From Bacteroidales bacterium (GTDB lineage: Bacteria > Bacteroidota > Bacteroidia > Bacteroidales > JACABE01), in the NCBI GenBank assembly GCA_023251515.1, contig JAHEYQ010000007.1, positions 50,363-98,417 on the forward strand: a stretch of 48,055 nucleotides of DNA, written 5' to 3'. Under the pieces are notes generated by a model that was given only the letters and a program-made list of their open reading frames with translations, was not told the origin of the DNA and did no database searches. Positions 11,126 to 38,325 of this stretch are shown one piece after another. Made by a program: the position numbers and the translations under genes. Every line of letters starts with the position of its first letter. Within the stretch, counting starts at the first letter, position 1.

Positions 11126-12832
11126 TTATAGATTTACCCAATCTCCATTTGTTTTGATTAAATCAATTAATTTATCAAGAGCCTCATATTCTGGAATATT
11201 TTTTTCAACCACTTCTTTTCCTTTATAAAGTGTGATTCTGCCATATCCGGCACCTACATAACCATAATGGGCATCAGCCATTTCGCCGGGACCATTTACG
11301 ATACAGCCCATTACAGCAATTTTTAAGCCTTTCAGATGAGAAGTTCGCTCTTTAATCAGTTTAAGTGCATCCATAATTCTGAATTGTGTTCTGCCACATG
11401 AAGGACATGAAATAAATTCGGTTTTACTTATACGTACACCACAGGCTTGCAGAATATTAAAAGAGGTTTTGGTAATAATATCAAGATCGAAATTCGGATT
11501 TTCTATCCAGATTCCATCACAAAAACCATCGACAAGTAATGCATTTAAATCGGCAGCAGCTTTCATTTGAAATTGTTCTAAATCAGCTATATTATAAGTT
11601 TTTTTAATTATAACAGGCGACTCGATCTGATATTTATTTAGCAAACTAAATAATTTACGTTCCTGAAAACTATTTTGATTTTTTAAATTGAAAACTAAAA
11701 TTTTATCTGACAAGTTTTTATATAAAGTGTCATTTTCAAAAAATTCTAAATTATCAACAATCAGATATTCAATTGATAATGTCGTTTTGTTGTTAACTAA
11801 CTGATTGTTAATGCAAGAATAATCAGCTTTGTTATCACCCACAATTTTTACAGCCTGATTACTTCCAATTTCATTAATTAACAGAGATTTTCTTTTGTCG
11901 TATTGATATGGATTGGCCGGAAAAGCCAGTGTTTCTGAAATATTCTCAGAAATTGTTTTTGTATAAAAATCTACAATTTTTCGTGCAACAGGCAATTCAA
12001 ATTCAGGATCTTCTGTTAATGAAACACGTATAGTATCTCCAATTCCATCGTGTAATAATGCTCCAATACCGGCAGCAGATTTAATTCTGCCATCCTCGGC
12101 ATCACCAGCTTCGGTTACACCCAAATGGATAGGATAGTTGAAACCTTCAGTTTTCATTTTTGCGACCAATAATCTGGTTGAAGCAATCATAACTTTTACA
12201 TTACTCGATTTCATGGATAAAACCAGATTATGAAAGTAGAAGCCATTAAGAATTCTGATAAATTCCATGGCTGATTCTGCCATTCCTTCCGGTGTATCGC
12301 CATAACGATTTAATATTCTGTTGGATAGCGAGCCATGATTGGTTCCGATTCTGATAGCAGTCTGATTTTTTTTACAGATTTCAATTAATGGGAAAATACG
12401 TTCAGAAATTTTTTTGAGTTCTTCCTGATATTCTTTATCTGTAAATTCAAATTTACCGATATTCCGGTCAGTATAATTGCCTGGATTGATGCGAACTTTT
12501 TCAACAATTGAAGCTGCTATTTCTGCGGCTTTCGGATTAAAATGAATATCAGCAATTAAAGGTGTCTGATAACCTCTTTTTACCAATTCATTTTTGATAT
12601 TTGCCAGATTTTCAGCTTCCTTTACGCCGGGAGCTGTAATTCTGACATACTCGCAACCGGATTCAATCATTCTGATACTCTGAGCAACCGTAGCTTCGGT
12701 ATTCATGGTATCGGTATTTGTCATCGACTGAATACGAATGGGATTATTTCCACCCAAAGCTGTATTGCCAATTCTAACTTCACGAGTTTTAAATCGTTGA
12801 TAATAATATGGATTTTCGATAAATTGATTCAT
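11126..12832 (-). CDS. ispG: 4-hydroxy-3-methylbut-2-en-1-yl diphosphate synthase IspG (long form with inserted domain)
   Basis: 568 aa. N-terminal TIM-barrel region (VRIGNTALGGNNPIRIQSMTNTDT). C-terminal 4Fe-4S region (SCPSCGRTQF...GCIVNGPGE). The large insert is typical of Bacteroidetes/plant GcpE. Confidence 0.95.
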   Translation of the reverse strand: MNQFIENPYYYQRFKTREVRIGNTALGGNNPIRIQSMTNTDTMNTEATVAQSIRMIESGCEYVRITAPGVKEAENLANIKNELVKRGYQTPLIADIHFNPKAAEIAASIVEKVRINPGNYTDRNIGKFEFTDKEYQEELKKISERIFPLIEICKKNQTAIRIGTNHGSLSNRILNRYGDTPEGMAESAMEFIRILNGFYFHNLVLSMKSSNVKVMIASTRLLVAKMKTEGFNYPIHLGVTEAGDAEDGRIKSAAGIGALLHDGIGDTIRVSLTEDPEFELPVARKIVDFYTKTISENISETLAFPANPYQYDKRKSLLINEIGSNQAVKIVGDNKADYSCINNQLVNNKTTLSIEYLIVDNLEFFENDTLYKNLSDKILVFNLKNQNSFQERKLFSLLNKYQIESPVIIKKTYNIADLEQFQMKAAADLNALLVDGFCDGIWIENPNFDLDIITKTSFNILQACGVRISKTEFISCPSCGRTQFRIMDALKLIKERTSHLKGLKIAVMGCIVNGPGEMADAHYGYVGAGYGRITLYKGKEVVEKNIPEYEALDKLIDLIKTNGDWVNL

Positions 12833-13340
12833 TTTCTTTAAAAAAGACGGAAGACGGAAGACCGAAGACGGAAGACCGAAGTCGGAAGTCGGAAGTCGGG
12901 CTACCGAATGTAAATATTACTGTATTTTCTTTTGAAATGCAACCATCATATTCATTAAATTGAATGCATATTCATAATGTATTAAGAATTCTTTCTCTGA
13001 TATATATTCTCGCCTTTTGGCTTTATGCAAACAAGTAACAACTTCAGCAAGTGAACGTATTGAAAACCCCATAAATCTTTTAAATTCCAGATTAGATTGC
13101 CCAATTGAACCTTCAGATATATTTAATGCAATTGAATCAACTGCTCTTCTTATTTGAGAAGAAAGATTAAATAATTCTTCTTTTGGAAAAGCAGATGTCA
13201 TTTTATGAATGATTTCTCCATAATCCATAGCCATCTGCCAGATAATTAATTTCTCAAATTTGAATTCCATAAATCTGTTTTTGCATTAGTTAAATACTAA
13301 AAGACACAAACTCTACTTTTGACTTCGGTCTTCCCACTTC
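12833..13340. mobile_element. IVS-like element A: heptamer repeats + four-helix-bundle protein gene + inverted terminus
   Basis: Left end has 8 tandem heptamers (GACGGAA/GACCGAA/GTCGGAA, 12846-12900). Right end GACTTCGGTCTTCCCACTTC (13321-13340) is the inverse complement. Fills the whole ispG/peptidase spacer. Confidence 0.6.
12917..13270 (-). CDS. Four-helix-bundle protein (family formerly called 23S rRNA intervening-sequence protein)
   Basis: 117 aa MEFKFEKLIIWQMAMDYGEIIHKMTSAFPKEELFNLSSQIRRAVDSIALNISEG... Characteristic sequence and size of the TIGR02436-type family. Embedded between inverted repeats. Confidence 0.75.
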   Translation of the reverse strand: MEFKFEKLIIWQMAMDYGEIIHKMTSAFPKEELFNLSSQIRRAVDSIALNISEGSIGQSNLEFKRFMGFSIRSLAEVVTCLHKAKRREYISEKEFLIHYEYAFNLMNMMVAFQKKIQ

Positions 13341-14939
13341 TTAAAACATTTCGTCATATTTTGTCCACAGAAAATCGCCTAAATCCCAGGCTTTTTTAAC
13401 AACCTTAGTTCCCCATTCGTTGGTGTATTTATTCAGATTTTCGATGGCTTGTTTATTTTTCTTTTGAGAAATCAGCAAAATAGCATCATTTTCTACTTTT
13501 TTCTGATTTTCAAATAATTCCTTTTGCCATGGATTCCATACTTTGTCAATATCTTTACGCATATCACCCCAACGGTGAGAAGCAAGTGTTCCTAATCTGT
13601 TGAAAGCCCACCATGCAGATTCCATATTATAACCTTTGGTTCTGCCGGGAGTTTTGTATGGTTTTGGCAAATCTAATGATTGACAATACACCGGAACATA
13701 AATAGAGGTTGCTACATTATCCAAAGCAAGCCAAACCACTCCGCCAACTTCGTCGGGCATCCAGCTTCGTGATTGAGTGATGGTTCCGTACATGGTGTAC
13801 CAGCGGGCTATCGGACGTTCGCCACGCCAGCCCCAGCCGCCGTTGATACGCAACATTTTATTCATATCATAAGGCATTTGTGGATTTGCCATAGGTGAAA
13901 TCACCATTTTTCCGCTATCATTGGCTACAAGCAAATCTTTGGTCATATCAAATGGAGTTCCTTCGTAATAATCTTTAAAAATACGAACCATCCATTCCAA
14001 TGTTACTGGTTTATCAGGTTTTACTGAAAAAGGATAATTTTCTGCATTGGGATCTAACTTTAAAGAAGGAGCCATCAAATCAAATACTCTCCATTCTCTG
14101 CGGCGTGATGCCAATGAAGTACGGCTTTCGGGTGCATAAGCATAACAAAAACGGAAAGTTTCGGTTCCTTCTTTATACCAGCCATGTTCTTTGGCAACCG
14201 TATAGATATTTTCTGAAGCCATAAAATAATCCGGTTTACTCAAATCAATTTCTTTAATTGTGCTTGCATTGGCATTTACACCTACCTGATCGTCAGGTAC
14301 ACGCTGAGCAACCCACACTGCTCCTAATTTATCCTTACCCGGACCAACAATTTCGAAATGCCATACTTCTTGTTTATCAGCGATAGTTAAACACTCACCT
14401 GCATCGCTCCATCCGTATTTTTTTGTCAATTCATCAGCCAGTTTAATGGCTTCGCGGGCAGTAGTGCATCGTTCGAGCATCAGTTGACAAAGTTGCTGAC
14501 AATCAATCAATCCTTTGTTTGATTGTAATTCTTCTCTGCCTCCAAATGTAGATTCGCCAATAGCAAGTTGTTTCTCATTCATACAGGGATAAGCAGTATT
14601 GATGAATCCATAAGTTGACTCAACCTGAGGAATTTCACCCACTTTATTGTAAGCATAAGAAGGCATGGGAAAGGTATCGCAAGGTACCCGGCGATAAACG
14701 GGCTGCATAGTGCCAGGCTTATGTTTCATTGCAGGAGTCATATACATTTCAGAACGTGTACGATGACTGTCATCGGTATGTGAAGTTTGAACGCTACCAT
14801 CAACCGAAGCCTTTTTACCAACAGTTATGGAAGTGCATGCATCGGGAAATCCACCCACCCAATCGCTTTTGTCAATTTGGGCAAAACTGCTTATTTGCAG
14901 AGCTAAAATCAGAATAATTGTAAAAATTGTTTTTTTCAT
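13341..14939 (-). CDS. Secreted C69-family dipeptidase (Ntn-hydrolase)
   Basis: Signal peptide, then the DACTSITVGKKASVDGS nucleophile-Cys motif typical of peptidase C69. 532 aa. Confidence 0.8.
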   Translation of the reverse strand: MKKTIFTIILILALQISSFAQIDKSDWVGGFPDACTSITVGKKASVDGSVQTSHTDDSHRTRSEMYMTPAMKHKPGTMQPVYRRVPCDTFPMPSYAYNKVGEIPQVESTYGFINTAYPCMNEKQLAIGESTFGGREELQSNKGLIDCQQLCQLMLERCTTAREAIKLADELTKKYGWSDAGECLTIADKQEVWHFEIVGPGKDKLGAVWVAQRVPDDQVGVNANASTIKEIDLSKPDYFMASENIYTVAKEHGWYKEGTETFRFCYAYAPESRTSLASRRREWRVFDLMAPSLKLDPNAENYPFSVKPDKPVTLEWMVRIFKDYYEGTPFDMTKDLLVANDSGKMVISPMANPQMPYDMNKMLRINGGWGWRGERPIARWYTMYGTITQSRSWMPDEVGGVVWLALDNVATSIYVPVYCQSLDLPKPYKTPGRTKGYNMESAWWAFNRLGTLASHRWGDMRKDIDKVWNPWQKELFENQKKVENDAILLISQKKNKQAIENLNKYTNEWGTKVVKKAWDLGDFLWTKYDEMF

Positions 14940-14952
14940 GGTTTGATATTAA

Positions 14953-15253
14953 GTCGGAAGACCGAAGACCGAAGACGGAAGTAAGGCTACCGTATGTAAA
15001 TGTTATTGTATTTTCTTTTGAAATGTTACCATCTTATTCATTAAGTTAAAAGCATATTCATAATGTTTATTAAATTCTTCTAATGTTATAAATCCTCTTC
15101 TTTTGGAAATTCAGATGCCACCTTATGAATATTTTCACCATATTCCATAGCATTTTGCCAAATAATTAATTTCTCAAATTTGAATTCCATAAGTCTGCTT
15201 TCCTATTATAAAAAATTAAAAGACATAAACCCTACTTCGGTCTTCCGACTTCT
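14953..15253. mobile_element. IVS-like element B: degenerate second copy with the same heptamer/inverted termini
   Basis: GTCGGAAGACCGAAGACCGAAGACGGAAG (14953-14981) and inverse complement CTTCGGTCTTCCGACTTCT (15235-15253). Internal sequence is ~85% identical to element A ends. Confidence 0.6.
15001..15190 (-). pseudogene. Internally deleted four-helix-bundle protein gene remnant
   Basis: RC reads MEFKFEKLIIWQNAMEYGENIHKVASEFPKEEDL-stop, then in another frame HYEYAFNLMNKMVTFQKKIQ-stop. The N- and C-terminal ends of the element-A protein are retained but ~60 central codons are missing. Confidence 0.6.
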
Positions 15254-15359
15254 AACTTTTATGCAAACCTACTAATATTTTTTGATATTTTGCGAAATCA
15301 GATGTGTTTTTCAATCAAAAAACTGTAAATTTGCTTAATAAAAAATCAATCAAATTATC

Positions 15360-16403
15360 ATGATAAATCCTGATTTCACTAAAATTGAAGGCATTGTTCT
15401 GCATAAAATCGGTATTAAACTTAATGAAGAAGGTATACGCTATTCTAAATCACCGATTCGTACCGACGAAACCATAAACGAACTGTTGCTTAAATATTTC
15501 TTTTCGCCGTTCAAACAGAGTGAATATTATAACCTTTATCATGACACCGATTTGAATCTGAACGAAATTTACAGCTATGTAAGTAATATTTTTGCAGATA
15601 CTGCTGAATTGCACGAACAGTCAGTAAACATTGCCAAGCATTTGTACGAACAATCTGTACATCCGAAAATAAAAAGCGGCGAAATGTATGTGGTTTATTT
15701 TAAAGATTGTATGCTTGATGGCGAAAATATGGACGCTGTGGGTATTTTTAAATCGGAAAACCGCGAAACTTACCTTAAGGTTTACCCCAGTGGCGATGGA
15801 TTTGAGATTGATAGCGAAGCCGGTATCAATATTAATAAACTCGACAAAGGTTGCCTAATTTTTAATACTGAAAAAGAAAACGGGTATGTGGTTGCGGTGG
15901 TTGACAACCTTAGTAAAGGTAGTGAAGCTCAGTACTGGATGGATAATTTTCTGCATCTTCGGATCAGGCACGACGAATTTCACAATACACGCGAGGTGCT
16001 GAATATGTGCAAAAGTTTTGTGGTAGAAACAATGCCGAAAGAATACGATGTTTCGAAAGCCGACCAAGCTGATTTGCTGAACCAGAGTCTGCAGTTTTTT
16101 AAGGAAAATGAAACCTTTGAATTTGACGATTTTGCCGAAAATGTGATGAAACAACCCGAAGTAATTGAGTCGTTTAAGCAATTCAAAAGTTTTTATGAAG
16201 ATGAAAAAGAATTAAAGATTGCCGATAGTTTCGATATTTCGGAAGAAGCTGTGAAAAAACAGGCAAGAGTGATGAAAAGTGTAATAAAACTTGATAAAAA
16301 CTTTCATATTTATATCCATGGCAAACGCGAACTGATTGAAAAAGGCTATGAAGATGAAAATAAAATGCACTTTTATAAGTTGTATTTTAAGGAGGAGATG
16401 TAA
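15360..16403 (+). CDS. Nucleoid-associated protein, NdpA/YejK (NA37)-like
   Basis: 347 aa. N-terminal KIEGIVLHKIG resembles the YejK INQIALHQLI start. Size and acidic C-terminal half are consistent. Assignment by eye only. Confidence 0.45.
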   Translation: MINPDFTKIEGIVLHKIGIKLNEEGIRYSKSPIRTDETINELLLKYFFSPFKQSEYYNLYHDTDLNLNEIYSYVSNIFADTAELHEQSVNIAKHLYEQSVHPKIKSGEMYVVYFKDCMLDGENMDAVGIFKSENRETYLKVYPSGDGFEIDSEAGININKLDKGCLIFNTEKENGYVVAVVDNLSKGSEAQYWMDNFLHLRIRHDEFHNTREVLNMCKSFVVETMPKEYDVSKADQADLLNQSLQFFKENETFEFDDFAENVMKQPEVIESFKQFKSFYEDEKELKIADSFDISEEAVKKQARVMKSVIKLDKNFHIYIHGKRELIEKGYEDENKMHFYKLYFKEEM

Positions 16404-16499
16404 TACCTTCTTCATTATAAAATATTACAAATAATTACGACGTGTAAATAATCAAAAAGAGTATCGTATTTATTTTTTATAAATGCTAAATATGTTGTA

Positions 16500-16507
16500 A
16501 ATTTGTT
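16500..16507 (+). promoter_or_regulatory. Bacteroidetes sigma-A -7 box candidate (TAAATTTG = TAnnTTTG) ~28 nt upstream of the 16536 start
   Basis: Motif match to the Bacteroidetes -7 consensus, with appropriate spacing to the ATG. Confidence 0.35.
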
Positions 16508-16535
16508 GATTAAACATTAGTAGGTTTTAGTAAGT

Positions 16536-19448
16536 ATGGCAACAACATTATTTGAGAAAAATATCCTTGATCTTAACTTTTCTTTTTTAACTCAAAAAGG
16601 AGAAAGTGGGATATTATTGACAAATAATTATGTAAATATCAAAAAAGACTTAGCCTCCCCTGACTTACTATTTTCATTGGAAATTGCCAAAACTAAATTC
16701 AATGCAGATGCAGTATATTTCCGTTTTTTTCAGGATGGAAGAGCAGCAGTGCCTCATTTATACTTATTTGATTATACTCAAAAGAATCTTACCACTGAAG
16801 ATAAGAACCGCATTCATATCCAAATGTGGAATGGCTATCAGGTTCCTGCTTATATTATTATTGAAAAATCTACTGTAAGTGTATTTGATTCCAGAAAGAA
16901 GCCTGATGATAAGAGAGATGTTTACGCAAAAGAAATTATAATATTTGCTGGTGAAGCAATTAAGGATTTTAAAGCACATGATTTTGATGATGGCTTATTT
17001 TGGGATGAACAAAACGAGAAAAAAGATTTTAAATTTGAACAATCTGCTACCAAGGATTTAATTAGGGGCTTGAAAAATGTTTATGAAAGTTTTCAAAAAA
17101 AATCAGGATTAAACAGACATGTCGCACTGAAATTACTTGTCCAAAGCCTTCTTATAAAGTATTTGGAAGAACGAGACGAAAAAAGTGCCAGTGGCTATTT
17201 TGCAGGTACATATTTCAAAAATAATTTCCAGTGTGAAAATTTCTGTGCAACTATCAGAAATGGAAAACTTTTGGATTTATTAGACCAATTGGCTAAAGAC
17301 TTTAATGGTAAAATATTTGAATGGCATAAAGAAGAGGAAAAAGAAGAAAGAGATGCAATTAGAAAAACAGGAGTACAACAACTTGCTGATTATTTAGATG
17401 GAAATATTCAGGACAACCAATATATTCTTTGGCGATTATATTCATTTTCGCATTTACCTGTAGAAGTAATTAGCTCTGTATATGAAGAACTATTGACTGA
17501 CAGTAAAGATATTGTTTACACACCAGAAATGATAGTTTGCACTTTGGTGGATGAATGTATGCCTCTAAAATGCCCGAAACAGGATTTTAAATTAATTGAT
17601 GTAAGTTGTGGCTCGGGAATTTTTTTGGTAAAAGCGTATAAACGCATTGTCCAATGGTGGAGATATGAACAATGGTTAAAAACCGGAGAATTAGTTAAAC
17701 CCCCATTATCTGTATTAAAAGAGTTGCTTTTAAAAAGCATACACGGCATAGATATAGAACAGGATGCCATACGATTAACTGTATTTAGTCTGGCATTGGC
17801 AATCTTGGATGAAGTTAATTTAGACCCACCAACATGGCAAGTACTTAAGTTTCCAGATTTAAGTGAGAATATTGTTACAAAAGACTTCTTCAAGTATATT
17901 ACAACATTTCCAAAAGACAGATTTGATTTAGTAATTGGCAATCCTCCATTTAACTTGCAAACTGTTAATGGTAAAGAACCGAACAGAAAAAGATATTTTA
18001 AGGAATTAAAAGAACAAACAGGATACAAAAGCGAGATTAGCATCCCTGATGAAAACCCTGCTTTGCACTTTTTGGTACAATCAATGAATTTATTAGAACC
18101 TAACGCTTTGCTTTGTTTGATTCAACCTTCAGGTCCATTGCTCTACCAAAAGGATATAGATTTTAAGCAGAAATTGTTTTCCAAACATAATCTATTGCAA
18201 GTTATTGATTTTACTAAACTGGCAGATAAACTTTGGGGTAGGAAAAATGTAGCTACTGCTGCAGTATTTATACAAAATTTAACCCCTGATAATGAAGACG
18301 TTCTTCACTTGGTTGCCAATCGTACCTTTTCAAATAAAAACCGTTTATTTTTAGAATTTGACCACTATGATTTTCATTTAGTCAGCAAAGACGCTATTTT
18401 GCAAAATCCATATATTTGGAAAGCAAATTTATTAGGTGGAGGTAGGATTGTGCAATTGATTGAAAGATTATCAAGTTTACGGACACTAGGAGAATTTTTA
18501 AATGGAAAAGAAAACGAAGGATGGATAAAAGGGGAAGGATTTATAGAAAAAGGTGATAAAAATCAAGCAACATATATTACTGGTAATGATTTTTTACCCA
18601 CAGAATCATTTTCTGAAAAAGGTTTTGAAATTGACCATTTCCCTAAATGTACAATCGATTTTTTTCATAGACCTAGAAAAAAAGAATTGTATAGTCCACC
18701 TCATTTATTAATTAGAAAAGTTCTTGGAAAAGAAAAACTAATAACAAAATTCTCTGATTTATATTTAACCTTTCTTAGTGATATTTTTTCAATTTATGCA
18801 CCAATGAAAGACAGAAGTGAATTAATTAATATTTCTAATTATTTAGATTCAACTGGTGAGTTATTACGTTTTTATATCTTAGCGACTAGTAGTAGAGTTA
18901 AAGTCAATAAAGCAACTTCATTATATGATGAAGATATTTTGAATATTCCTTTTCCTTATAATCTATCTGAAGTTATACTTTCAATAGCTGAAAATATATT
19001 ATTAAATGATTCAATGCTATATTTCTTTTGTTCAGATTCTAAAAACGTCTTTGAACAAAGTATTTCAGAAAAACAAATACAGCAATTCTCAAATATTTTC
19101 TGCCAAACATTAAATAGCGTATATCAATCTGAAGGAAAATCTTTTCAACTATTTAAAATACTGGATGCTGGTAAATATTATGCCTTACACTTTGAATATT
19201 CAACAGAAATTATCAATCCTGAAATTGAACAAATAGATAATTTAGAACAATATATAAACGAAATAATTCCTGCAAGAAAAAAAAACCAAGAAAATACTCA
19301 TATCCAGAGAATAATGAAAGTGTATGGACAGGATTGTATCATTTTGGCCAAACCCAAACAATTACGTTACTGGTTACTCTCAATTGCTTTAAGGGATGCA
19401 GATGAAACATTTGCTGACTACATAAAAACCCGTTACCATAATGCTTAA
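16536..19448 (+). CDS. Single-chain Type IIG / MmeI-like restriction-modification protein: gamma-class N6-adenine DNA methyltransferase core with large N- and C-terminal extensions
   Basis: 970 aa. Motif I IDVSCGSGIFLV, then HGIDIEQDAIRLTVFSLALAIL, then motif IV VIGNPPFN, in the same order as MmeI (DPACGCGNFLV / GIEIEEFPAQIAQVALWL / ILGNPPF). N-terminal PAYIIIEKS resembles the MmeI ILLIEMKSRG nuclease segment. ~500-aa C-terminal region would be the TRD. Confidence 0.75.
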   Translation: MATTLFEKNILDLNFSFLTQKGESGILLTNNYVNIKKDLASPDLLFSLEIAKTKFNADAVYFRFFQDGRAAVPHLYLFDYTQKNLTTEDKNRIHIQMWNGYQVPAYIIIEKSTVSVFDSRKKPDDKRDVYAKEIIIFAGEAIKDFKAHDFDDGLFWDEQNEKKDFKFEQSATKDLIRGLKNVYESFQKKSGLNRHVALKLLVQSLLIKYLEERDEKSASGYFAGTYFKNNFQCENFCATIRNGKLLDLLDQLAKDFNGKIFEWHKEEEKEERDAIRKTGVQQLADYLDGNIQDNQYILWRLYSFSHLPVEVISSVYEELLTDSKDIVYTPEMIVCTLVDECMPLKCPKQDFKLIDVSCGSGIFLVKAYKRIVQWWRYEQWLKTGELVKPPLSVLKELLLKSIHGIDIEQDAIRLTVFSLALAILDEVNLDPPTWQVLKFPDLSENIVTKDFFKYITTFPKDRFDLVIGNPPFNLQTVNGKEPNRKRYFKELKEQTGYKSEISIPDENPALHFLVQSMNLLEPNALLCLIQPSGPLLYQKDIDFKQKLFSKHNLLQVIDFTKLADKLWGRKNVATAAVFIQNLTPDNEDVLHLVANRTFSNKNRLFLEFDHYDFHLVSKDAILQNPYIWKANLLGGGRIVQLIERLSSLRTLGEFLNGKENEGWIKGEGFIEKGDKNQATYITGNDFLPTESFSEKGFEIDHFPKCTIDFFHRPRKKELYSPPHLLIRKVLGKEKLITKFSDLYLTFLSDIFSIYAPMKDRSELINISNYLDSTGELLRFYILATSSRVKVNKATSLYDEDILNIPFPYNLSEVILSIAENILLNDSMLYFFCSDSKNVFEQSISEKQIQQFSNIFCQTLNSVYQSEGKSFQLFKILDAGKYYALHFEYSTEIINPEIEQIDNLEQYINEIIPARKKNQENTHIQRIMKVYGQDCIILAKPKQLRYWLLSIALRDADETFADYIKTRYHNA

Positions 19449-35172: not shown

Positions 35173-36378
35173 CTATAATATAATTTCTTTTAAAGCCAAA
35201 CCCGCAAGTTCTGCAAACAAAGGTGGAATTGCATTTCCGATTTGAGTATATCGAGGTACTTCAACTTTACGCATTTGTCCACCTGTAGTATATTTCTCTT
35301 TTATTTCATACCAATCAGGAAATGTTTGTATTCTAGCATATTCCCGAACAGTTAATATTCTGGGTTCTGAATAATGAATATAATCATCAGGATGAGTTGT
35401 CAGAGTTGGTGAAATTTGTTTTGAATCCAATAAAGTTATCCCTCTTTTTTTTATTTTCCAGTGTTCACGTTCCTTGTTTGCAATTCTTTTACCTTTAATT
35501 GGATAATACTCTATTATTGATGAGAAAACGTTCACTGTTTCTCCGTTATGATTCGCAAAGCTATGACTGTCAGGAATTGTGTTTTTCTGAGTATAGTCTC
35601 CACGCATTAGAGTTTGAAAATTAGAGTTTGATTTACCATAAAATCCAGATTTGAAACTTTTTCGGTCAGGTGTTTTAACAGTGCCATTAGAACTGAGTAA
35701 ATCTGAAATAGCATCTCCAATTGTTGTAGTGTCTTTTATCCCTTTTTCTTCCAAGTAAACTTGTTTTAGCTTATCAATTGTTGGTTCAAAATCTGATGCT
35801 TTTCCATTCAAAGATCCTACTAAAATAAAGCGTTTCCTTCGTTGAGGTACGCCATATTTTGAAAAATCTATAATATGAGGTTTTACACAATACCCTAATT
35901 CATTTAGTTTATCAATAACTATTTTTGAATATGGAACAGCATCGTTTTCTCCTTTTTTATTAAATGCATATGTAAATCCCTTCACATTCTCAAAAAGAAT
36001 CATCTTTGGACGAACTAATTCAATAAAGTTTATATATGAATAAACTAATTGATTTCGCATATCTTCTTCAACTCTTTTCCCTGCCATTGAAAATCCTTGA
36101 CAAGGCGGTCCCCCAGCCACTAAATCAACAGTACCTCTTAGTCCTCTTAAATCCTTAGCGTGATTCTTTAAAACTTCATTAATATCATGATTTTCAGGTT
36201 TTAGCCAATCAGGCCATTCAAAATGTTTTTTATTGTCTATCAAATTGAATTTCAATGTTTCAAAGGCAAAGGGACTTTTTTCTATAGCAAATAATCCTTT
36301 CCAACCTGCATTATGCAAGCCCAAAGAAAGACCGCCACAACCAGCAAAAAGATCTATATAAGAAAAATTTTGATTCAT
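35173..36378 (-). CDS. DNA (cytosine-5)-methyltransferase
   Basis: Motif I DLFAGCGG, motif IV GGPPCQGFS, motif VI ENV, motif X QIGNAIPP. 401 aa. Stop directly abuts the start of the ATPase-kinase gene. Confidence 0.9.
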   Translation of the reverse strand: MNQNFSYIDLFAGCGGLSLGLHNAGWKGLFAIEKSPFAFETLKFNLIDNKKHFEWPDWLKPENHDINEVLKNHAKDLRGLRGTVDLVAGGPPCQGFSMAGKRVEEDMRNQLVYSYINFIELVRPKMILFENVKGFTYAFNKKGENDAVPYSKIVIDKLNELGYCVKPHIIDFSKYGVPQRRKRFILVGSLNGKASDFEPTIDKLKQVYLEEKGIKDTTTIGDAISDLLSSNGTVKTPDRKSFKSGFYGKSNSNFQTLMRGDYTQKNTIPDSHSFANHNGETVNVFSSIIEYYPIKGKRIANKEREHWKIKKRGITLLDSKQISPTLTTHPDDYIHYSEPRILTVREYARIQTFPDWYEIKEKYTTGGQMRKVEVPRYTQIGNAIPPLFAELAGLALKEIIL

Positions 36379-36547: not shown

Positions 36548-36830
36548 GGGCTGAAAACTTCCGATGGAGATATTTTAAGCTTCGCTGTCAGGGGAAAAAC
36601 TTCCGATGCCGATACTAAAAGACTCAATGTAGGGGCAAAAAGATTCCCCGTCGATATTAAAAGACCCGGCGGAGATACCAAAAGACTCTTTGCCGGAGTA
36701 TAAATACTCTCTGTCGTAGCAAAAAGACTCGGTGGAGATATAAAAAGATTCGGCACCGAGGAAAAAAGACTCTGTCGAGATATAAAAAGACTCTAGGTCG
36801 AGGTAAAAAGTATCTCCATCGGGTCTTTTG
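36548..36830. repeat. Degenerate ~40-bp-period repeat array (repeat family 1), core GGAGATAyaAAAAGACTC, at least 7 copies, one inverted
   Basis: Copies at 36566, 36609, 36650, 36671, 36734, 36775. Inverted copy AAAAAGTATCTCC near 36805. Confidence 0.65.
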
Positions 36831-36834
36831 ACAC

Positions 36835-36864
36835 CAGGGGGGGTGGGTAAACCACCCCCTGAGA
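36835..36864. other. G/C-rich hairpin CAGGGGGGGTGG-GTAAA-CCACCCCCTG separating the two repeat families
   Basis: ~10-bp GC stem with a bulge, in an otherwise AT-rich spacer. Confidence 0.5.
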
Positions 36865-37060
36865 GGTAAATAGATGCTTTGAGGGTGTAAATACCTGCTC
36901 AGAGGATATAAATAGATGCTCTAAAGGGTGTCGATAGCTGCCCGGAGGGTATAAATACATGCTCTGTAGGGGGTAAATAGATGCTCTATAGGATCTAAAT
37001 AGATGCTCTATAGGGTGTCGATAGATGCCTGGAGGATATATACAGATGCTTTAGTGGGGG
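36864..37060. repeat. Tandem ~21-22-bp direct repeats (repeat family 2), consensus TAAATAGATGCTCTATAGGGTG, ~9 head-to-tail units, no spacers
   Basis: Units start at 36866, 36887, 36908, 36930, 36951, 36973, 36995, 37017 and 37038, with progressive degeneracy. Confidence 0.7.
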
Positions 37061-37152
37061 TTGGTTAAATAAGTAAATATAAAAATGGGTATTTTTCTGA
37101 ACGTTTCCCGATTTCAGTTGTAATCATAGTATAATTCAAAAAAATAAATATC

Positions 37153-38325
37153 ATGAACAATATTAAAAAAATCAACATTCTTATATTCCTTATCGGAATT
37201 TATCTGCTGCCGCTTAATGCCCAAAAACCCGAAAAGGTGTATTCCATTGTAAAACAAATAAAATCAATCGACTGGTACCGCACTCAGGCAAAACTCTGGA
37301 AACAGGAAATTGCCAAAGATACTGCCAACGAAACCGCATGGATAAATTATTATGCAGCCAATCGAATGGCAAGAATGACAGATGCCGGATTGTGGAATAA
37401 AGAAAAAGGGGATTATTTTCTCGATTTAAAGACCATAGTGAGCAAAGCTGAAAAAGCCATTCCCGAAACCTATGAGTTTTATCATATGAATGTATGGGAT
37501 AAGGGAATTTACGACATAAAACAGGCCGATTTTATGTTCAAAGCTATGAAAATGTATCCCGACCGCATGGATATGATAAGTAATTATGTAAACTATTACG
37601 AAATAAACCGCGATAAGGAAAATATGAAGAAATATTGCAGCAAATGGTTTAGCAGCAACGAAATTTCGCCGGGAATACTGGCTTATAATTATAATGTATT
37701 AAGCACTTTAGAAGACAATGCCATTATTTTTACCAATGGCGACAACGATACCTATCCGCTCTGGATACTGCAATATGCCAAAGGTATAAAAAAGGAAGTA
37801 AGTGTTTTTAATGTAAGTTTGCTGCAGATAGATAGCTACAGAGATAAATTGTTTGCCGAAATCAGAATACCGGCTTTCGATACCGCAAAATTTATGAAAA
37901 CCTATAAAACAGAAATGGATTATCCACAGGCAATTATCCGTCACATTATCCAGAATACCGATCGGCCGGTGTATATGGCTTCAACCATGAGCAATGAATA
38001 TTACAAAGAATTTGAAAAAGACCTTTATCTTACCGGATTGGCTTTCCGCTACAGCAAATCGGATATAGACAATACGGCCTTTATCAGAAAAAATTATGAA
38101 AAAAACTTCCTTCTTGATTATATAAAGATTAATTTTACAAATGATTTGTCGGAAACGGTAGTAGCTCAGATGAATATGGGTTATCTGCCGGTATTATTCA
38201 AATTGTATGAACATTATGGATTGACAGGCGAAACCGAAAAAAGAGCAGAAGTTAAAAAACTTGCAGCAATAATTTCAGCAGCAGCAGATAAAGAAACAGA
38301 AGTAATGCCCTGGTTCGAAAAATAG
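37153..38325 (+). CDS. Secreted hypothetical protein, first gene of a putative operon with the ECF sigma/anti-sigma genes
   Basis: Signal peptide MNNIKKINILIFLIGIYLLPLNAQ. 390 aa with no recognised catalytic motif. Only 5 nt precede the sigma-factor start. Confidence 0.5.
   Translation: MNNIKKINILIFLIGIYLLPLNAQKPEKVYSIVKQIKSIDWYRTQAKLWKQEIAKDTANETAWINYYAANRMARMTDAGLWNKEKGDYFLDLKTIVSKAEKAIPETYEFYHMNVWDKGIYDIKQADFMFKAMKMYPDRMDMISNYVNYYEINRDKENMKKYCSKWFSSNEISPGILAYNYNVLSTLEDNAIIFTNGDNDTYPLWILQYAKGIKKEVSVFNVSLLQIDSYRDKLFAEIRIPAFDTAKFMKTYKTEMDYPQAIIRHIIQNTDRPVYMASTMSNEYYKEFEKDLYLTGLAFRYSKSDIDNTAFIRKNYEKNFLLDYIKINFTNDLSETVVAQMNMGYLPVLFKLYEHYGLTGETEKRAEVKKLAAIISAAADKETEVMPWFEK

Follow-up and report, generated by a model that had tools for sequence, protein, structure and literature searches.

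The DNA analyzed here (hereafter the window) is a stretch of 48,055 nucleotides (nt) from a Bacteroidales bacterium (contig JAHEYQ010000007.1, positions 50,363 to 98,417), in which a C69-family dipeptidase gene is flanked by two repeat-ended elements, designated A and B. We propose, with a probability of roughly 55%, that element A is an intact copy and element B a decaying copy of a widespread, promoter-less, selfish cassette that is transcribed by its host, resembles the intervening sequences (IVSs) of rRNA and has arms forming an RNase III-type stem. Such a cassette would begin with a purine-rich heptamer array and a short leader, followed by a gene of 117 codons, whose product is a four-helix-bundle protein of S23p/Avd-like type, and by a complementary pyrimidine-rich array. 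What could be observed directly in the sequences is this architecture and its recurrence, the covariation of the arms, sense nesting in operons, the gain or loss of the cassette at one defined site, a gene under purifying selection and decay in which the arms are retained. IVS-type cassettes outside rRNA and the class-wide use of tandem-heptamer arms have apparently not been reported before. All genes of the region lie on the minus strand, and its features are given below in the order in which they would be transcribed.

15264-15271, minus strand: promoter-like -7 box TAGGTTTG, which fits the Bacteroidetes consensus TAnnTTTG and is located directly upstream of element B
14951-15259, minus strand: element B as a whole, the same unit as element A with an internal deletion
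15235-15259, minus strand: 5' arm of element B, AAAGTTA GAAGTCG GAAGACC GAAG, purine-rich heptamers on the transcript strand
14985-15234, minus strand: interior of element B, consisting of the leader and a PF05635 pseudogene
14951-14984, minus strand: 3' arm of element B, a pyrimidine-rich complementary array on the transcript (Tandem Repeats Finder, TRF: 14957-14981, 3.6 copies)
13341-14939, minus strand: C69-family dipeptidase gene, secreted product of 532 aa (PF03577, E 4e-65), with elements on both sides
12838-13340, minus strand: element A as a whole, an intact cassette
13316-13340, minus strand: 5' arm of element A, GAAGTGG GAAGACC GAAGTCA AAAG, purine-rich, beginning right at the peptidase stop codon
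13271-13315, minus strand: 45-nt leader of element A from the 5' arm to the ATG, AT-rich, conserved with element B and with L001, a related metagenome-assembled genome (MAG)
12917-13270, minus strand: intact gene for the four-helix-bundle protein of 117 aa, PF05635/TIGR02436 (S23p, '23S rRNA IVS protein' family)
13014-13186, minus strand: segment of element A that is deleted in B, with CTTTTGG at 13014-13020 and at 13180-13186, exactly 166 nt apart
12900-12916, minus strand: 17-nt spacer from the stop codon to the 3' arm, with a CGGTAGCC box common to A, B and L001
12844-12899, minus strand: 3' arm of element A, eight tandem heptamers (TRF: period 7, 8.0 copies, 89% matches, score 77)
12833-12843, minus strand: U6 tract and A-rich leader UUUUUUAAAGAAA, from the 3' arm to the ispG ATG
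11126-12832, minus strand: ispG (GcpE, E 4e-123), directly downstream of element A and co-oriented with it

The 117-aa open reading frame (ORF) of element A exceeded the family cutoffs over nearly its full length, both for PF05635 (100.9 bits, cutoff 33.8, E 5.6e-29, residues 6-109 of 117) and for the NCBIfam model TIGR02436 (97.3 bits, cutoff 24), which agrees with the original prediction, made from the letters of the sequence, that this element encodes an intact four-helix-bundle protein. The inverted heptamer termini described there for both elements were also found. When up to 2 mismatches were allowed, the window contained 12 copies of the pattern GAAGWCSGAAGWCSGAAG, all inside the four arms, and 100 shuffles contained none. 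Read on the transcript, the 3' arm of element A runs CGACTTC CGACTTC CGACTTC GGTCTTC CGTCTTC and further units, and a 26-nt stretch of its 5' arm is 85% complementary to 12864-12889, while positions 15235-15251 and 14951-14967 in the arms of element B are complementary at 17 out of 17 positions. In L001, the U-run additionally pairs with an A-run preceding the 5' arm. Minimum free energy (MFE) folding closed both elements with a terminal stem (z-scores of -2.1 and -3.0), comprising 22 pairs in three helices in element A and ~24 pairs, 17 of them perfect, in element B; the predicted pairing of the termini was thus reproduced, and both elements show the complementary termini and closing stem of at least ~20 bp that characterize an IVS. 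Rfam holds no family for the cassette, and a scan of 12500-15600 with E values up to 10 returned four chance-level matches, with no family and no rRNA match among them.

Within ~700 nt upstream of the peptidase gene, the box at 15264-15271 is the sole TAnnTTTG on the minus strand, and it is likely the start of a transcription unit comprising the B remnant, the peptidase gene, element A and ispG; ispG would then be transcribed through element A. The junctions along this unit are tight. The 5' arm of element A follows the peptidase stop codon with 0 nt between them, as was claimed for every junction, whereas 11 nt each separate the 3' array of element A from the ispG ATG, the 3' array of element B from the peptidase ATG, and the box from the start of the B 5' arm at 15252 (4 nt if the extended array up to 15259 is counted). 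The suggestion that the elements provide the terminator and promoter of the peptidase gene was not supported: element A contains no TAnnTTTG box in its coding strand, neither element has a local hairpin resembling a terminator, and the sole good box is outside element B, upstream of it. A scan for sigma-70 promoters and intrinsic terminators, whose model is unsuited to Bacteroidota, gave counts at the level of shuffles and nothing in the arms. The cassettes look dependent on host transcription and not like a source of it.

Elements A and B could be aligned at 81-84% identity on either side of a single 166-nt gap, and tblastn recovered residues 1-32 and 84-117 from element B in different frames. 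Thus, element B is indeed element A with a central deletion, although it lacks ~51-55 codons rather than the ~60 first estimated, and its remnant is a frameshifted pseudogene. Because the gap equals the distance between the two CTTTTGG copies in element A, a deletion by microhomology or slippage is suggested. L001, with ~86% nucleotide identity, shares the synteny and an intact element A, and its B site holds only an ORF-less hairpin of 130 nt (array, 60 nt, complement) with the same promoter-like box in front. Therefore, a decay series runs from the intact cassette through the internally deleted cassette to the ORF-less hairpin, in which the arms are kept throughout. The number of array units also differed (8 and ~3.5 in the window, ~5 and 7 in L001). 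With regard to the same two genomes, nucleotide identity was 95-98% in the element A ORF and 94-99% in the first 300 nt of the peptidase gene (window 12852-13251 and 14631-14930, respectively), compared with ~85% in the surrounding host genes; these stretches beside the elements may be recombination patches or may reflect extra constraint.

It might be argued that a segment of spacer plus gene was duplicated purely locally and has no status as an element, given that the window contains just two copies, both in one operon. We consider this extremely improbable. The unit occupies unrelated sites in 80 genomes from several orders of Bacteroidota, and other repeat units take its place in other phyla; moreover, relatives of the 117-aa protein formed 4247 clusters at 90% identity (word-indexed search), and matches to the family formed 9501 clusters at 50% identity (exhaustive search), many of whose representatives are truncated. 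Nor could any local event that duplicated an element around the peptidase gene, as originally envisaged, be demonstrated: A and B are only 81-84% identical and the related MAG has both, which indicates that they are old copies. Recombination between them, with loss of the peptidase gene, is possible in principle and was not observed.

To assess recurrence in Bacteroidota, we collected 80 loci from genomes of Bacteroidales, Cytophagales and Flavobacteriales with proteins 71-96% identical, in which arrays were detected by one regular expression. At least three GAAG-type heptamers were present on the sense strand within 250 nt upstream of the ORF in 73 of the 80 loci, and a complementary array was located downstream in ~64. 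The purine-rich arm 5' of the gene in element A can be written as (GAAGWCS)n; array lengths across the loci were 3 to 41 units. In total, 202 arrays were detected in these loci and the window, compared with 8 after shuffling, and few of them were away from a PF05635 gene. The ORF was intact at exactly 117 codons in 76 of the 80 loci and showed purifying selection (pN/pS 0.20 for 77 ORFs; dN/dS 0.19 against L001). The homologue in Aquipluma nitroreducens was found in one place only, and the 20 cluster members came mostly from other samples. Candidate carriers that can be cultivated are Lutibacter oricola DSM 24956 (L071, nuoJ|nuoK), Draconibacterium aestuarii Z1-6 (L015), A. nitroreducens (L081) and Flagellimonas amoyensis (L060). 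The longest arrays reached 200-290 nt (L044, upstream, 41 units; L064, 37; L059, 30). Many close homologues were located on contigs of just 500-700 nt, which is consistent with arrays breaking short-read assemblies. Several loci had minority units, and one contained a paralogue with another heptamer, as listed here.

L027 and L047: GGGAAGT/ACTTCCC, complementarity kept
L031: GGAAGTT/AACTTCC, complementarity kept
L058: GACGGATGACC/GGTCATCCGTC, complementarity kept
L079: GCTNTTW and its complement, a different heptamer, around a 40%-identical paralogue between cysD and cysN

The arms of each element match each other specifically. In 73 loci, own arms matched better than the arms of other elements did, a value reached in 0 of 10,000 permutations. 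A similar arrangement was observed outside Bacteroidota: 13 of 16 loci from a plasmid collection (Cyanobacteria, Gemmatimonadota and an Azospirillum 23S IVS) had inverted tandem arrays of 7-8-nt units around the ORF, and in every one of these 13 the 5' array was purine-rich on the sense strand. The units were as follows.

Two Nostoc plasmids: 5' GGGAACA, 3' TGTTCCC
Anabaena sp. 90: 5' GGTGACA, 3' TGTCACC
Geminocystis: 5' GGGAAAA, 3' TTTTCCC
Nostoc ATCC 53789: 5' GGGGAAA, 3' complement
Picosynechococcus: 5' GGAGATA, 3' TATCTCC
Calothrix: 5' GGGTGTA, 3' TACACCC
Stanieria: 5' GGCAGAG, 3' CTCTGCC
Aulosira, Trichormus and Nostoc: 5' GGAGTCA, 3' short complement
Gemmatirosa: 5' octamer GGCAGGAG, 3' CTCCTGCC

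The Azospirillum lipoferum locus (L088) is a genuine ORF-bearing 23S rRNA IVS. Its 23S rRNA gene (Rfam LSU_rRNA_bacteria, 2464 bits) is interrupted by a PF05635 ORF (E 9e-30) flanked by arms of GAGGACG GATGACA GAGGACG and further units with their complement. When 23 elements with different units were compared, the own-arm score averaged 17.1 versus 8.2 for non-own arms, and the own arm was the best partner in 13 of the 23. Because the inverted arrays keep their complementarity across different unit sequences, the arms covary, and their changes are compensatory at the level of whole repeat units. On the basis of this covariation and of the shared architecture, the elements of the window belong to the same class as the S23p-encoding rRNA IVSs, placed in mRNA spacers. 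Thus, the architecture is shared by 80 loci of Bacteroidota, by other phyla and by a 23S IVS, and the elements could be upheld as such, in contrast with a unit occurring only here. Two further observations concern the cyanobacterial loci. In Pseudanabaena (L087, 1300-2060), ~20 AAAAGCT units upstream and ~10 AAAAGCC units downstream have the same orientation, with a complementary AGCTTTT array further upstream, which does not fit a simple rule of inverted arms. On the Aulosira, Trichormus and Nostoc plasmids (L184, L186 and L187), the GGAGTCA units stop 5-10 nt before the ATG (...caggagtcagaataaATG), and the purine-rich arm of Cyanobacteria could double as a Shine-Dalgarno site.

Within operons, the cassettes fill the spacers in which they sit. 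Their orientation was also that of the downstream gene in ~70 of 72 loci and that of the upstream gene in ~59 of 72. From the upstream stop codon to the first array the median distance was 3 nt (interquartile range -3 to +9), the host ORF ended within the array in 19 of 60 loci, and a median of 34 nt separated the end of the 3' arm from the next ATG. Recurrent sites were nuoJ|nuoK in Lutibacter and its relatives, and cysD|cysN; in nine Bacteroidales MAGs the cassette was in the leuS leader, right after a TAATTTCG box. On cyanobacterial plasmids, co-oriented PF05635 cassettes also separate cas6 from cas4 in type I-D CRISPR loci and cmr2 from cmr3 in a type III-B locus; the carriers were Anabaena sp. 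90 pANA02 (L084), Pseudanabaena (L087) and Picosynechococcus (L085).

The nuoJ-nuoK junction allowed filled and empty sites to be compared. It was filled in 7 loci, and 13 loci of relatives with 82-95% identical NuoK had an empty junction with a spacer of 5-12 nt, which shows gain or loss and supports the mobility that had been proposed. At filled sites the NuoJ frame enters the 5' heptamer array and stops there. The element thus encodes the last residues of NuoJ, for example ...AKGKRLSEDGSPKTEVKN instead of ...AKGKKLTEKN (L054, L067, L070, L071, L078 and L080). Of 80 homologous peptidase loci from metagenomes (61-72% identity), none had a PF05635 gene, and one had an ORF-less array hairpin after the stop codon. 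Since ispG synteny was also absent from these 80 loci, what they reveal is a lineage-specific presence, as opposed to a precise empty site.

Such distributions bear on the idea that the paired arrays are a device of benefit to the host, that is, a hairpin for processing, stabilizing or attenuating mRNA, with expression tuned by array slippage, in the manner of a contingency locus, and with the ORF as a secondary component. The start codon downstream follows the end of the 3' arm by 6-60 nt in most loci, close relatives such as the window and L001 differ in the copy number of their arrays, the arms outlast the ORF during decay (element B and the L001 hairpin), and heptamer pairs in Xanthomonas have been reported to be transcribed and positionally stable (PMC4692102), all of which would suit a regulatory role. 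However, the arrays are absent from 79 of the 80 homologous peptidase loci and from the nuoJ-nuoK junction of close relatives, and this absence at orthologous sites means that the host genes do not need the device. The carrier genes (nuo, cys, leuS, cas, tra and par) are unrelated to one another, and the ORF, which shows purifying selection, moves together with the arms. We therefore regard a host device as rather improbable.

A mobile element acting at the DNA level deserves separate consideration. Here, the arrays would be terminal inverted repeats (TIRs), or cruciform or hairpin DNA, for a recombinase or transposase encoded elsewhere, the ORF would be a passenger or accessory gene, and the RNA stem would be incidental. 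The filled and empty nuoJ-nuoK sites and the lineage-specific presence beside the peptidase gene are expected from such an element, its ORF-less derivatives resemble MITEs (miniature inverted-repeat transposable elements), and the arms show no excess of G.U over A.C mismatches. On the other hand, no target-site duplication, which the original prediction had proposed to look for, was visible at the one comparable pair of filled and empty junctions (nuoJ-nuoK), where divergence leaves a duplication of 1-3 nt below resolution. No transposase, integrase or reverse transcriptase (RT) was detected among the 31 window ORFs of at least 180 aa. Thus, neither of the two hallmarks of a MITE or TIR transposon, a target-site duplication and a cognate transposase, was found. 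In addition, arm sequence drifts freely while the ORF is conserved, which would be unexpected if a separate transposase recognized the ends; DNA transposition alone does not predict downstream co-orientation in ~70 of 72 loci; and the same architecture exists in a 23S rRNA helix, where the documented behavior of the family is excision at the RNA level. DNA-level mobility thus appears unlikely, albeit compatible with the insertion polymorphism and with the lack of strand asymmetry.

Under the preferred reading of a host-transcribed, IVS-like cassette, expression would come from read-through of a host promoter, as suggested by the strict co-orientation, by the lack of an internal promoter box and by sites such as nuoJ|nuoK and the leuS leader. 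In the transcript, the arrays would pair with each other as a stem of ~20-50 bp, closing off the cassette. Because both arms consist of tandem repeats with many pairing registers, such a stem would survive slippage and indels, and we suggest that this flexibility of register may be why repeats are used instead of unique inverted sequences. By analogy with rRNA IVSs, RNase III would cut the stem and free the cassette RNA, leaving the host cistrons intact. The conserved protein presumably serves the element, most likely through nucleic acid binding, in view of the purifying selection and of its kinship to Avd, the RNA-binding protein of diversity-generating retroelements (DGRs); the most economical guess is that it binds the arm duplex. 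Copies would be gained at spacer sites directly past stop codons and slowly lost by internal deletion, with the arms kept.

It should be noted that several points weigh against this interpretation. Read-through and RNase III cleavage at the locus are themselves inferred, and the promoter assignment depends on a short consensus motif. The z-scores of the whole-element MFE folds are modest (-2.1 and -3.0), and the arm helices, with a median length of 27, are imperfect, with ~14% mismatches, most of which are A/T transversions between unit variants. G.U-compatible and A.C mismatches in these helices were about equally frequent (56 versus 45, p = 0.32), a neutral outcome that is compatible with pairing of the DNA itself or of the antisense strand. 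A loop of ~430 nt between the arms would slow formation of the stem during transcription relative to a local hairpin. As to sampling, the survey does not amount to an unbiased census: similarity of the protein to this subfamily decided which loci of Bacteroidota were included, their orientation and gene starts were called by a longest-ORF heuristic, and the loci from other phyla represent one plasmid collection, in which tblastn gave 25 records and 16 were examined.

Among the closest known systems are the S23p-encoding 23S rRNA IVSs of Leptospira and Coxiella. They share with the elements of the window the PF05635 family, complementary termini around a leader and an ORF of ~120 codons, the sense orientation of this ORF in the host transcript, a sporadic distribution suggesting mobility, and ORF decay in some copies; the Azospirillum IVS likewise has arms built of heptamers. 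By contrast, rRNA IVSs are inserted in helix 9, 25 or 45 of 23S rRNA, whereas the elements of the window lie between protein-coding genes and their arms are plainly tandem arrays of heptamers, with a length that varies (3 to 41 units in relatives). RNase III has been shown experimentally to excise the S23p-IVS of Coxiella burnetii, which has a 28-bp terminal stem, and the same has been reported for the IVS of Leptospira (PMC4990558). For the elements of the window this step would occur by analogy with such cases, and excision from mRNA would separate cistrons rather than fragment rRNA.

With respect to the protein, the nearest solved structures were 2GSC (E 7.9e-13 from the single sequence, 5.5e-32 from a profile) and 2RLD (2.7e-14), a relation of sequence only. 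Relatives of the protein are pentameric barrels, and it may have a homopentameric four-helix-bundle fold as in XCC0516 (2GSC). Avd resembles the PF05635/'S23 ribosomal protein' fold, forms a positively charged pentameric barrel and acts on an RNA with a duplex and stem-loops made by its upstream and downstream segments (PMC10053308; bioRxiv 10.1101/2023.10.23.563531). A profile search of PDB with the subfamily reached 2GSC and 2RLD and missed bAvd (4DWL), and the link to Avd rests for this reason on the literature. A DGR fragment was considered as a further candidate and rejected: no RT, template repeat or variable repeat is located near the locus, and the long repeats near the ORF are only the two cassette copies and their arms. 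No phage homologue was detected by tblastn in 50,697 phage records.

Heptameric repeats in bacterial genomes include the cyanobacterial STRR heptamers reported by Mazel et al. (1990). GGGAATC arrays in Xanthomonas, with 70-75 convergent pairs, and GGGGAYT arrays in Nostoc have been described (PMC4692102), as have TAACTGA repeats, which are heptameric simple sequence repeats (SSRs) (PMC4679880). These bacterial SSRs have in common with the cassette arms that 7-nt tandem units occur in spacers, often within operons, vary in copy number between relatives and are transcribed. The two studies PMC4692102 and PMC4679880 treated the repeats as G-quadruplex or regulatory SSRs with no link to PF05635, and neither text mentions '23S', 'S23' or 'helix bundle', whereas in the cassettes described here a gene is bounded by the arrays at both ends. 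TAACTGA repeats are direct, unpaired and right at start codons, unlike the cassette arms. Xanthomonas campestris ATCC 33913, for which the 70-75 convergent GGGAATC pairs were reported (PMC4692102), is also the source of the PF05635 structure 2GSC (XCC0516). The Xanthomonas pairs are probably the same element class or ORF-less remnants of it. We found no paper linking PF05635 genes to flanking heptamer arrays, within a search that did not extend to subscription-only papers, where an earlier description is possible.

The Correia elements (NEMIS) of Neisseria are short inverted-repeat elements in transcribed spacers, whose hairpins are cut by RNase III; their TIRs are fixed, at ~26 bp, their target-site duplication is TA, and they carry no ORF. 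They may be viewed as a functional analogue of the ORF-less derivatives (the hairpin at the L001 B site, L126 and L031), whereas the cassettes have tandem-repeat arms, no visible duplication and an ORF-bearing parent. In a different context, the FLSHclust survey listed '23S rRNA IVP' among CRISPR-linked domains (PMC10910872). The nesting of cassettes in cas operons may explain this association.

A far broader proposal would be that PF05635 cassettes constitute one very large class of RNA-level mobile elements, which includes ORF-bearing rRNA IVSs, stand-alone four-helix-bundle genes and much of the heptamer-repeat excess. An Avd-like pentamer would bind its own arm duplex and recruit host RT or recombination functions, the excised RNA would be copied back after stop codons or into rRNA helices, and the arrays would be made or repaired by 7-nt slippage. 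As a whole, we consider this scenario a long shot.

The surroundings of the locus are those of an ordinary chromosome (mreBC, purH, sucAB, dnaG and T9SS-tailed proteins). Two further parts of the window may be mentioned. At 15360-19448, a gene for NA37 (37-kDa nucleoid-associated protein) precedes one for an Eco57I/MmeI-like fused restriction-methylase of 970 aa, and both are transcribed divergently from the promoter region of element B. At 36554-37061, ~500 nt of degenerate tandem repeats, with 21-nt AAAAGACTC...GAGATAT units and then 22/43-nt TAAATAGATGCTCTNNAGGGTG units, occupy a divergent spacer of 770 nt between a C5 cytosine methylase gene (35173-36378, minus strand) and a 390-aa ORF (37153-38325, plus strand), which has no Pfam match and precedes a gene for an ECF sigma factor.

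To our knowledge, few unexplained small genes in Bacteroidota and Cyanobacteria are as common as that for the 'four helix bundle protein', and we know of no account of the origin and mechanism of rRNA intervening sequences in 30 years. Our results indicate that this gene is normally a cassette with inverted heptamer-array ends, nested in sense orientation in operons and at least once in 23S rRNA, and that the cassette is gained and decays like a selfish element. The units split operons and overwrite the 3' ends of host genes (for example, NuoJ), and they may break metagenome assemblies, which is a warning for annotation. Moreover, part of the excess of heptamer repeats in bacterial spacers finds a simple explanation in the cassette.

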